DNA from: a virus
Lineage: Duplodnaviria; Heunggongvirae; Uroviricota; Caudoviricetes
IMG/VR virus record: IMGVR_UViG_2728369393_000001
DNA: 64,000 nucleotides
Reading direction: 5' to 3' (one strand)
The notes below the pieces were generated by a model that was given only the letters and a program-made list of their open reading frames with translations, ran no database searches and was not told the DNA's origin. A program made the translations under genes and the position numbers. Below, in pieces: positions 18,424-19,443 of this stretch. The number at the start of each line of letters is the position of its first letter. The first letter of the stretch is position 1.

Positions 18424-19443
18424 TTATTTAAACGGATTGATTGAATTATTAAACGTGATGATGCTTGTCTCACGCGGTGCCTGGACGTTAGCCGCTTGCG
18501 GAACCTCCTTAATTTTCTTGGTGACAGGCAAGTTGCGCGCGCCAACCTTGATCAGAGATTCGAAAAGCGTGGCTACGATTTTTGCATCACCAGGTTCTTT
18601 GAGGCGGAATGCGTCTTTTTGGGCGGCGGAGACGAAAATCGGGAGGTTATCCAGTTCGTCTTGCATTGCTGCCAGCACATCGTCGCGGATACCCGCTGTT
18701 TCCTCCAGCAAAGCGATTCGCGCTTCAGCATCTGCGATCTTGGCCATTGCTTCGAGGTGGCGGCCCTGGCTTTCGAGTAGTGCGGTTTCCAGTTCTGCCG
18801 TACGCTCTGTCGCCTCCACCATCATTTCCAGTTCAGCCATTTTGCCGTAATGGGATATAACTGCCTGCACTGACTCGTCGGAGTACCCATGCGCCGCCAG
18901 GGACTCTGCCAGTAGAGATTTAGAATCCGCGCTTTCAAACATTCCGGCGCTGGCAGGATGATCCAGACTGATATAGTTCGGCGTTGTCACATAATCCACA
19001 CCATGGAAGCTGGTGGTTACAGCGATTTTCCCGGACTCGCGCCCGCCAGTGGCCCAGCTCCAGCCACCAGCTCGGCTTTCGATCATCGCGGCGACAATTT
19101 TACCCGGCTCTGTGTTAAGAATTTCCTGTGTATGGGTAACGATGCCGTTGTCGTCAACAGATATAGCCACTGTGCGACACGCTGGAACATTGTCGATTAC
19201 GACCGGGCGACCTTCCACCATGATCACGCTGGTTTCTGGTACTTCCAGTTTGCCGGTCAGCTGTCGGCGACCGTGACCGTAATAGCCGAAAAGCTCACCA
19301 AGGCGTAAACCTTCCTGAGTTTCCTTGCTTTCAAGCATGGTCTTTACCGCGCTTAATACATACTGTCGCCCGTTCTGGCGACCTTTTCGAGCATTGCTAT
19401 AGAGACAAAAGCGGTCAGTGACCGTTTTCAAAACATCAGTCAT
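18424..19443 (-). CDS. pro: head maturation protease / scaffold-like protein (P1 Pro-like by position next to portal)
   Basis: ATG (MTDVLKTV) overlaps the upstream gene stop in ATGACTGA; coiled-coil C-terminal half. Confidence 0.5.

Follow-up and report, generated by a model that had tools for sequence, protein, structure and literature searches.

Phage P1 (AF234172 / NC_005856) carries the portal gene prt (17312..19021) ahead of pro (19014..20033), with the same pro ATG and 8-nt overlap as at the locus analysed here and with the late promoter LPpro upstream of prt. Phage P7 (AF503408) has the same layout, with the genes named proA and proB. P1 Prt is a dodecameric portal (12-mer) by cryo-EM (PMC12810830), and Pro is regarded as the prohead protease, taking 120 residues off gp23 and also trimming DarA (PMC9024508, PMC12810830). 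The P1 papers describe a phage without a separate scaffold, and both prt and pro score as essential (PMC10695390).

Start/stop overlaps of this kind are well described. Spacings of -8 (NTGNNTGA), -4 and -1 are the three that are enriched in prokaryotic genomes (Brown and Wade review, PMC12548453). Coupling is best between -4 and +3 and falls as overlaps lengthen (PMC12548453; Huber et al. 2019 and 2023). Ribosomes that terminate near such an AUG reinitiate in the E. coli pairs that have been tested (reviewed in PMC12548453).

Here, we analysed a portal/protease junction in a stretch of 64,000 nt from a Caudoviricetes virus (IMG/VR record IMGVR_UViG_2728369393_000001), the whole of which we call the window. 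A first-pass annotation made from the sequence alone had read this junction as an overlap that couples the two genes in translation and fixes the stoichiometry of their products. The observation is the ordinary junction of the two-gene late operon prt-pro in a P1-type phage. Its 8-nt overlap is already known: the curated P1 record shows it, and the class to which it belongs has been well described.

Results

The prt-pro operon and its junction

The stretch of approximately 3 kb that holds the two genes is 98-99% identical at the DNA level to P1, P7, JL22, RCS47, SJ46 and other Punavirus records. The late promoter LPpro (AAGTGACTAGTGTTAAATT, a -22 box and a -10; 21188..21206, minus strand), which would drive the prt-pro operon, has a single exact match in the window and is identical to LPpro as annotated in AF234172. 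Between the prt and pro starts on the minus strand, we found no sigma-70-like promoter, and the terminator-like hairpins there were only weak, none of them convincing. The portal gene (19436..21145, minus strand) has the same extent as P1 prt and encodes 569 aa from a TTG at 21145 to a TGA at 19438-19436, with a Shine-Dalgarno (SD) sequence, AAGGTG, read 5 nt before the TTG (21151..21156, minus strand). Its product matches PHROG 1497 'portal protein' over its full length (E = 3.8e-261), which, together with the 12-mer formed by P1 Prt (PMC12810830), bears out the earlier naming of the upstream gene as a portal. The match to Pfam Portal_T4 was sub-threshold, at 16 bits against a cut-off of 22.9.

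The downstream gene, pro (18424..19443, minus strand), encodes a head-processing (prohead) protease of 339 aa with an ATG start and a TAA stop, assigned to PHROG 1801 and with 166 homologs. The calculated masses are 62.8 kDa for Prt and 36.9 kDa for the short form of Pro, and the P1 proteome table lists 62.7 and 36.8 kDa, respectively (PMC9024508). This agreement tells only which annotation the proteome table used.

On the minus strand, positions 19443..19436 read ATGACTGA, in the context ...AAAGAGGGAAACGATA-ATGACTGA-TGTTTTG.... The TGA closes the portal ORF of 569 codons (21145..19436), while the ATG at 19443-19441 is in frame with the ORF that runs to the TAA at 18426-18424, giving the 339 aa. 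The first-pass coordinates of this 8-base overlap were exact. The overlap is co-directional and of the form NTGNNTGA with an NTG start, that is, of the -8 class; it is invariant across the P1 clade and annotated alike in P1, P7 and JK004. Both frames are real genes, and the SD, the N-termini of homologs and the conservation within the clade point to the ATG as the true pro start. The ORF list opens the pro ORF at a TTG at 19473, 10 codons before the ATG (349 aa). The observation matters little past annotation hygiene, for which the 349-aa TTG call is to be trimmed to the 339-aa ATG form.

Three further signals were seen along the operon. The TTG start of the portal (21143-21145, minus strand) is also that of the curated P1 record, and so weak a start suits a protein needed at 12 copies per head. 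A GC-rich, terminator-like hairpin (CCCGGCGGCTGCCGGG, 18394..18409) lies 15 nt downstream of the pro stop, in the gap where pro and lydE/lydD converge, with a T-tail that is good on the plus strand and poor on the minus strand. A small terminator-like hairpin, CGGTCACTGACCG followed by CTTTTGTCTC, is located 20 nt inside pro (19412-19424, minus strand). TVTDRF, the best-conserved motif of the N-terminus, is encoded at this very place, so the hairpin is probably a coding by-product.

The start codon of pro

Pro might instead start at TTG 19473 and carry a 10-residue extension, either as its only form or as a second isoform. The frame is open, TTG is a legal start codon, and this TTG is present in all P1-type sequences of 98-100% identity as well as in an 80% relative (L164). 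We nevertheless consider this start very improbable. The SD of pro, AGAGGG (19452..19457, minus strand), lies 8 nt before the ATG within the last prt codons and forms an anti-SD duplex of -6.3 kcal/mol, against -4.5 kcal/mol for TTG 19473, whose duplex is irregular and which has no properly spaced SD. We rejected a start further downstream, at TTG 19431 (Leu5), because it lacks an SD (+0.3 kcal/mol) and because relatives differ at the Leu5 codon.

Homologs agree with the ATG. The PHROG 1801 profile (1-339) aligns to residues 11-349 of the long ORF, i.e., from the ATG-initiated Met. The called N-termini of 60 homologs, down to 39% identity, lie 0-7 residues before a conserved L-x-T-V-T-D-R-F block, and a conserved N-terminal extension is absent from all 60. 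Neither a homolog nor the PHROG profile covers the extra ten residues. All curated and PGAP annotations likewise place the pro start at the ATG. The P1 virion proteome contains only three Pro peptides (PMC9024508).

Sequence variation points the same way. The AGAGG core and A-ATGACTGAT stay unchanged in all of 52 distinct contexts from the P1 clade, while the 6-nt spacer between them is the most variable stretch of the region, which is the signature of a working ribosome-binding site (RBS). Within the P1 clade, 10 of the 30 positions of the extension vary. In L164, where junction sequences were aligned by eye, the extension differs at four of its ten residues, yet the first 15 residues of Pro are identical in a more distant relative (L006, 69-70%), in which TTG 19473 is replaced by TCG. 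One of the L164 changes, tcg to tca, leaves the portal residue as it was but alters a residue of the pro frame. Relatives more distant than L006 are without the extension, and two variants that bear an insertion sequence (L038 and L041, see below) have a TAG in the pro frame, six codons ahead of the ATG, with no start codon between. With its weak duplex and unconserved start, the 10-codon stretch (TTG AAT ... ATA; 19444..19473, minus strand) most likely stays untranslated in the pro frame, as the first-pass annotation had supposed; it encodes the C-terminal tail of the portal and contains the pro SD. From these sequence comparisons, the ATG rather than TTG 19473 is well supported as the pro start.

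Overlapping junctions in the window and predicted RNA structure

We scanned the window blindly for ATGs that open at least 100 codons within 10 nt of a stop that closes at least 100 codons. This identified 14 ATG/stop pairs, where a shuffled window gives 0.04: eight ATGA overlaps, three of 1 nt, two of 8 nt and one of 11 nt. They represent 13 distinct junctions, two of the pairs being alternative ATGs at a single one (54185-54188). Overlap is a systematic property of this gene-dense genome and is not singular to prt/pro. The second 8-nt overlap, ATGGGTAG with the SD AGGAG, lies between long ORFs at 60627-60634 (plus strand), as does the 11-nt overlap, ATGCAGATTAA with the SD AAGGAG, at 15596-15606 (plus strand).

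Thirteen such junctions in the window alone are consistent with an overlap that has no function. The prt/pro overlap would then reflect genome compaction where a disordered portal tail meets its stop, and Pro would be made wholly by de novo initiation. Portal residues 534-569 are not resolved by cryo-EM (PMC12810830) and the codons just before the overlap are variable, both of which fit this explanation. Against it, termination 5 nt past an AUG with a well-spaced SD is known to lead to reinitiation in the E. coli pairs tested (PMC12548453), so that some coupling is the default expectation for this geometry. The invariance of A-ATGACTGAT in all 52 P1-clade contexts, while neighbouring positions vary, also speaks for a function. 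We therefore regard a functionless overlap as possible but doubtful.

We also looked for RNA structure at the junction that might hide the RBS. The minimum free energy (MFE) of the fold did not differ significantly from that of shuffled sequences (z = -0.61). A small predicted hairpin (AUCGGUC/GACUGAU) holds the SD in its loop. The SD is predicted to be 85% unpaired, and the RBS as a whole matches the mRNA background in accessibility (0.45-0.54 against 0.41 +/- 0.06). Accessibility of this degree makes de novo initiation at pro feasible, to which passing ribosomes may add; it would also suit a functionless overlap. In longer contexts, the prediction has positions +4 to +15 after the pro AUG mostly paired (probability of 0.03 of being unpaired). 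Given this predicted pairing, there may be a real dependence of Pro on upstream ribosomes.

In its strongest form, such a dependence would be an obligate coupling that fixes the portal:protease ratio, with Pro coming exclusively, or nearly so, from ribosomes that arrive straight from the portal gene. Besides the pairing at +4 to +15, this is favoured by the -8 overlap setting the AUG inside the footprint of the terminating ribosome and by the genome-wide enrichment of the -8 spacing (PMC12548453). However, pro has its own ATG and accessible SD, and the reported efficiency of coupling drops for overlaps past -4 (PMC12548453).

The junction in relatives of Pro

Obligate coupling would also sit poorly with the variety of junctions found among relatives. 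From 263 loci encoding Pro relatives, we obtained 64 distinct junction sequences, in which the portal was located by a tblastn-anchored method; one of them (L115) was counted as a 1-nt spacer, its automatic value of '-38' being an artefact. The 8-nt overlap occurs at seven junctions, six of them in the P1 clade (Pro at least 69% identical; also JK004) and one of independent origin in a Thaumasiovibrio element (ATGGCTAA). Two junctions overlap by 4 nt and two by 1 nt, so overlaps total 11 of the 64. Spacers of 1-75 nt account for 28, namely 21 of 1-20 nt, including that of the plaque-forming phage D6 (13 nt), and seven of 26-75 nt. Inserted genes or no nearby portal characterise the other 25: at 20 junctions 0.6-2.4 kb lies between portal and pro, and at five the 3 kb upstream contain no portal. 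The distant Pro homologs of Xanthomonas phage Rb1 and Acinetobacter phage ABMM1 are likewise not encoded beside a portal. At 57 of the 64 junctions, an SD match of 4 nt or more precedes the pro start by 4-11 nt.

As junction types vary so widely across relatives, the 8-nt overlap is a clade-specific state of a plastic junction. The spacers and inserted genes suggest that portal translation is not a general requirement for the expression of Pro, and any coupling in P1 would be dispensable for the head-assembly module. The retention of the overlap in the P1 clade down to Pro identities of approximately 69-70%, and its independent origin in the Thaumasiovibrio element, can be counted in favour of obligate coupling. 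The free drift of the junction geometry among relatives is what would be expected of an overlap without function.

One of the 20 junctions with long inserts is an insertion of ISEc42, an IS200/IS605-family element of 1295 nt. It lies exactly between ...AACGATA (SD/spacer) and the pro ATG in L038 and L041 (IMG/VR 648276647_000006 and 3300015186_000026; locus positions 1706-3000) and is also found in ON470615.2 (L264). The end of ISEc42 supplies GGAGGG 7-8 nt before the pro ATG. The insertion changes the portal tail from GNDND-stop to GNDIDNCPP-stop, and the portal is full-length in the two contigs and fragmented in the phage record ON470615.2. A 1295-nt element exactly between SD and ATG speaks against a Pro that can be made only by ribosomes leaving the portal gene.

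With inserts of 0.6-2.4 kb at about 19 of the 64 distinct junctions, the portal/pro junction seems to be a cargo slot. PADLOC gave no match for the ORFs that relatives carry there. In the two loci that were read, from Pantoea conspicua (L014, insert at 635-2998) and Serratia sp. PL17 (L022, insert at 1591-2995), the inserts consist of ORFs on the opposite strand. A domain resembling Tad2 (Thoeris anti-defence 2) is encoded by one ORF of the Pantoea insert, at 2247-2588 on the minus strand (E = 5e-6; 27.4 bits against a cut-off of 25), and one ORF of the Serratia insert (2436-2852, minus strand) has a DUF6283 domain.

The Pro protein and a putative self-cleavage site

The first-pass annotation had called the downstream gene protease-like. 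Sequence searches gave little to go on: Pfam placed neither Pro nor a single one of 60 homologs in a peptidase family (S77, S78 and the like), even with the threshold relaxed to E <= 1, and did no better for the distant homologs in Rb1, ABMM1 and D6. A PDB-sequence profile search with Pro was empty, and hhalign of Pro against T4 gp21 gave a probability of 1.4%, i.e., no detectable sequence similarity. Lacking a sequence link to known peptidases, Pro forms its own sequence family. Fold comparison placed Pro with the assemblin-like proteases (assemblin, T4 gp21 and HK97 gp4), so the protease-like label is supported at the level of the predicted fold, and the P1 papers treat Pro as the prohead protease. 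The labels in P1 records, 'putative kinase/phosphatase ... activation of host protease' and, in RefSeq, 'tail fiber protein', are contradicted by the fold result and by the later P1 papers.

The N-terminal protease domain comprises approximately aa 1-160 (18964..19443, minus strand). Within it, His57 (in GYYGH; 19275-19273) and Ser129 (in GGWSW; 19059-19057) are invariant in 60 sequences, and from this invariance we infer a catalytic role for the two residues. The C-terminal approximately 180 residues after the protease domain are helical, with a long helix or coiled coil at aa 189-265 (18649..18879, minus strand) and a conserved LPxF...FES block at about 267-296. Pro resembles protease-scaffold fusions, and its BFVD matches include 'prohead core scaffolding protein and protease'.

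The maturation site of P1 gp23, which was defined with an Edman result (PMC9024508), reads ...KAMLE/SVAAEM in the P1 record, the slash marking the cut. The window, with 19,081 ORF residues, has four copies of the corresponding motif, M-x-E-S, where 1.9 would be expected. Pro holds three of these (M36, M120 and M168; residues 36-39, 120-123 and 168-171), although its composition predicts 0.06 and only 5 of 200,000 shuffles reach three. The Pro motif M168-F-E-S171 (18931-18942, minus strand) lies where the protease domain gives way to the helical C-terminal part, and pLDDT is lowered there at residues 169-172. The 168-171 site is conserved exactly in 55 of 60 homologs, and a relaxed match to it occurs in all 60, with MLES, as in gp23, being the commonest version. 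This suggests that Pro may cut itself at M-F-E/S, as gp21-type proteases do. The fourth motif is in DarA, at M40-T-E/S43 (residues 40-43; window 10442-10453, plus strand). A cut at DarA E42/S43 has no obvious fit to the fragment of approximately 9 kDa in the literature.

Discussion

We are fairly confident that the junction of the prt-pro operon combines an independent initiation of pro at the ATG with facultative coupling to the portal; both the coupling and its size we infer. Transcription from LPpro (21206-21188) would yield one mRNA carrying prt and pro, on which the portal would be translated from TTG 21145 to the TGA at 19438-19436. Pro would be initiated at ATG 19443, five bases before the portal stop, using the AGAGGG in the last portal codons. 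In the -8 geometry, a ribosome halted on the portal UGA would have the pro AUG lying across its E and P sites. The SD would be within reach of the 3' end of its 16S rRNA, so some ribosomes may restart on pro by termination-reinitiation. Terminating ribosomes would also melt the weak pairing predicted just downstream of the pro AUG. Because the SD is predicted to be accessible, free 30S subunits should initiate pro as well. Such facultative coupling would ensure that pro is made whenever the operon is translated, while leaving the portal:protease ratio unlocked.

The first-pass annotation had gone further, and its two claims on expression fared differently. Translational coupling is plausible, given the enriched -8 spacing, but the overlap makes it only a possibility, as pro has its own accessible SD and ATG and relatives have spacers or inserted genes instead. 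Fixed stoichiometry does not follow from the overlap, which taken alone is no evidence of a constant ratio between the two proteins: translation of the portal begins at a weak TTG, whereas pro has its own ATG and SD.

Copy numbers bear on this as well. A head requires 12 portal subunits, and HK97 and T4 package their prohead proteases in numbers several times greater. With a portal that is initiated at a weak TTG, pure coupling would leave the protease in short supply. A strict dependence of pro on portal translation is argued against, as far as sequence can tell, by the accessible SD and the uncoupled relatives. We judge obligate coupling with a fixed ratio to be improbable. We would give similarly little credence to a related idea, in which the -8 overlap is a selected dosage device and Pro depends substantially on ribosomes finishing the weakly translated TTG portal. 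If it were true, protease would be capped by the portal and timed after it, shielding assembling proheads from premature proteolysis, and lineages without the overlap would have needed other controls. The portal/protease junction is plastic in P1-like plasmid prophages, where we found overlaps of 8, 4 and 1 nt, short spacers, an insertion sequence and cargo genes.

In the head gene cluster of T4, the gene before the protease gene 21 (gp21) is gene 68, a scaffold component and not a portal, and Pro differs from gp21 by its added 180-residue helical C-terminal part. Phage D6 (MF356679), a plaque-forming, P1-like plasmid prophage, has a homologous portal/protease pair in the same order (orf22/orf21). 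The N-terminal domain of D6 Pro is 56% identical to that of Pro here, and its junction has a 13-nt spacer with its own GGAGGG SD in place of the overlap. With the -8 overlap class (PMC12548453), prt/pro shares the geometry, the strand and the SD inside the upstream gene, coupling at prt/pro being only a candidate. P1 Prt, for which cryo-EM has shown a dodecameric ring, is 98-99% identical to the portal described here. At 98-99% DNA identity to prt/pro of P1 and P7, the junction in the window shows no difference of substance from theirs.
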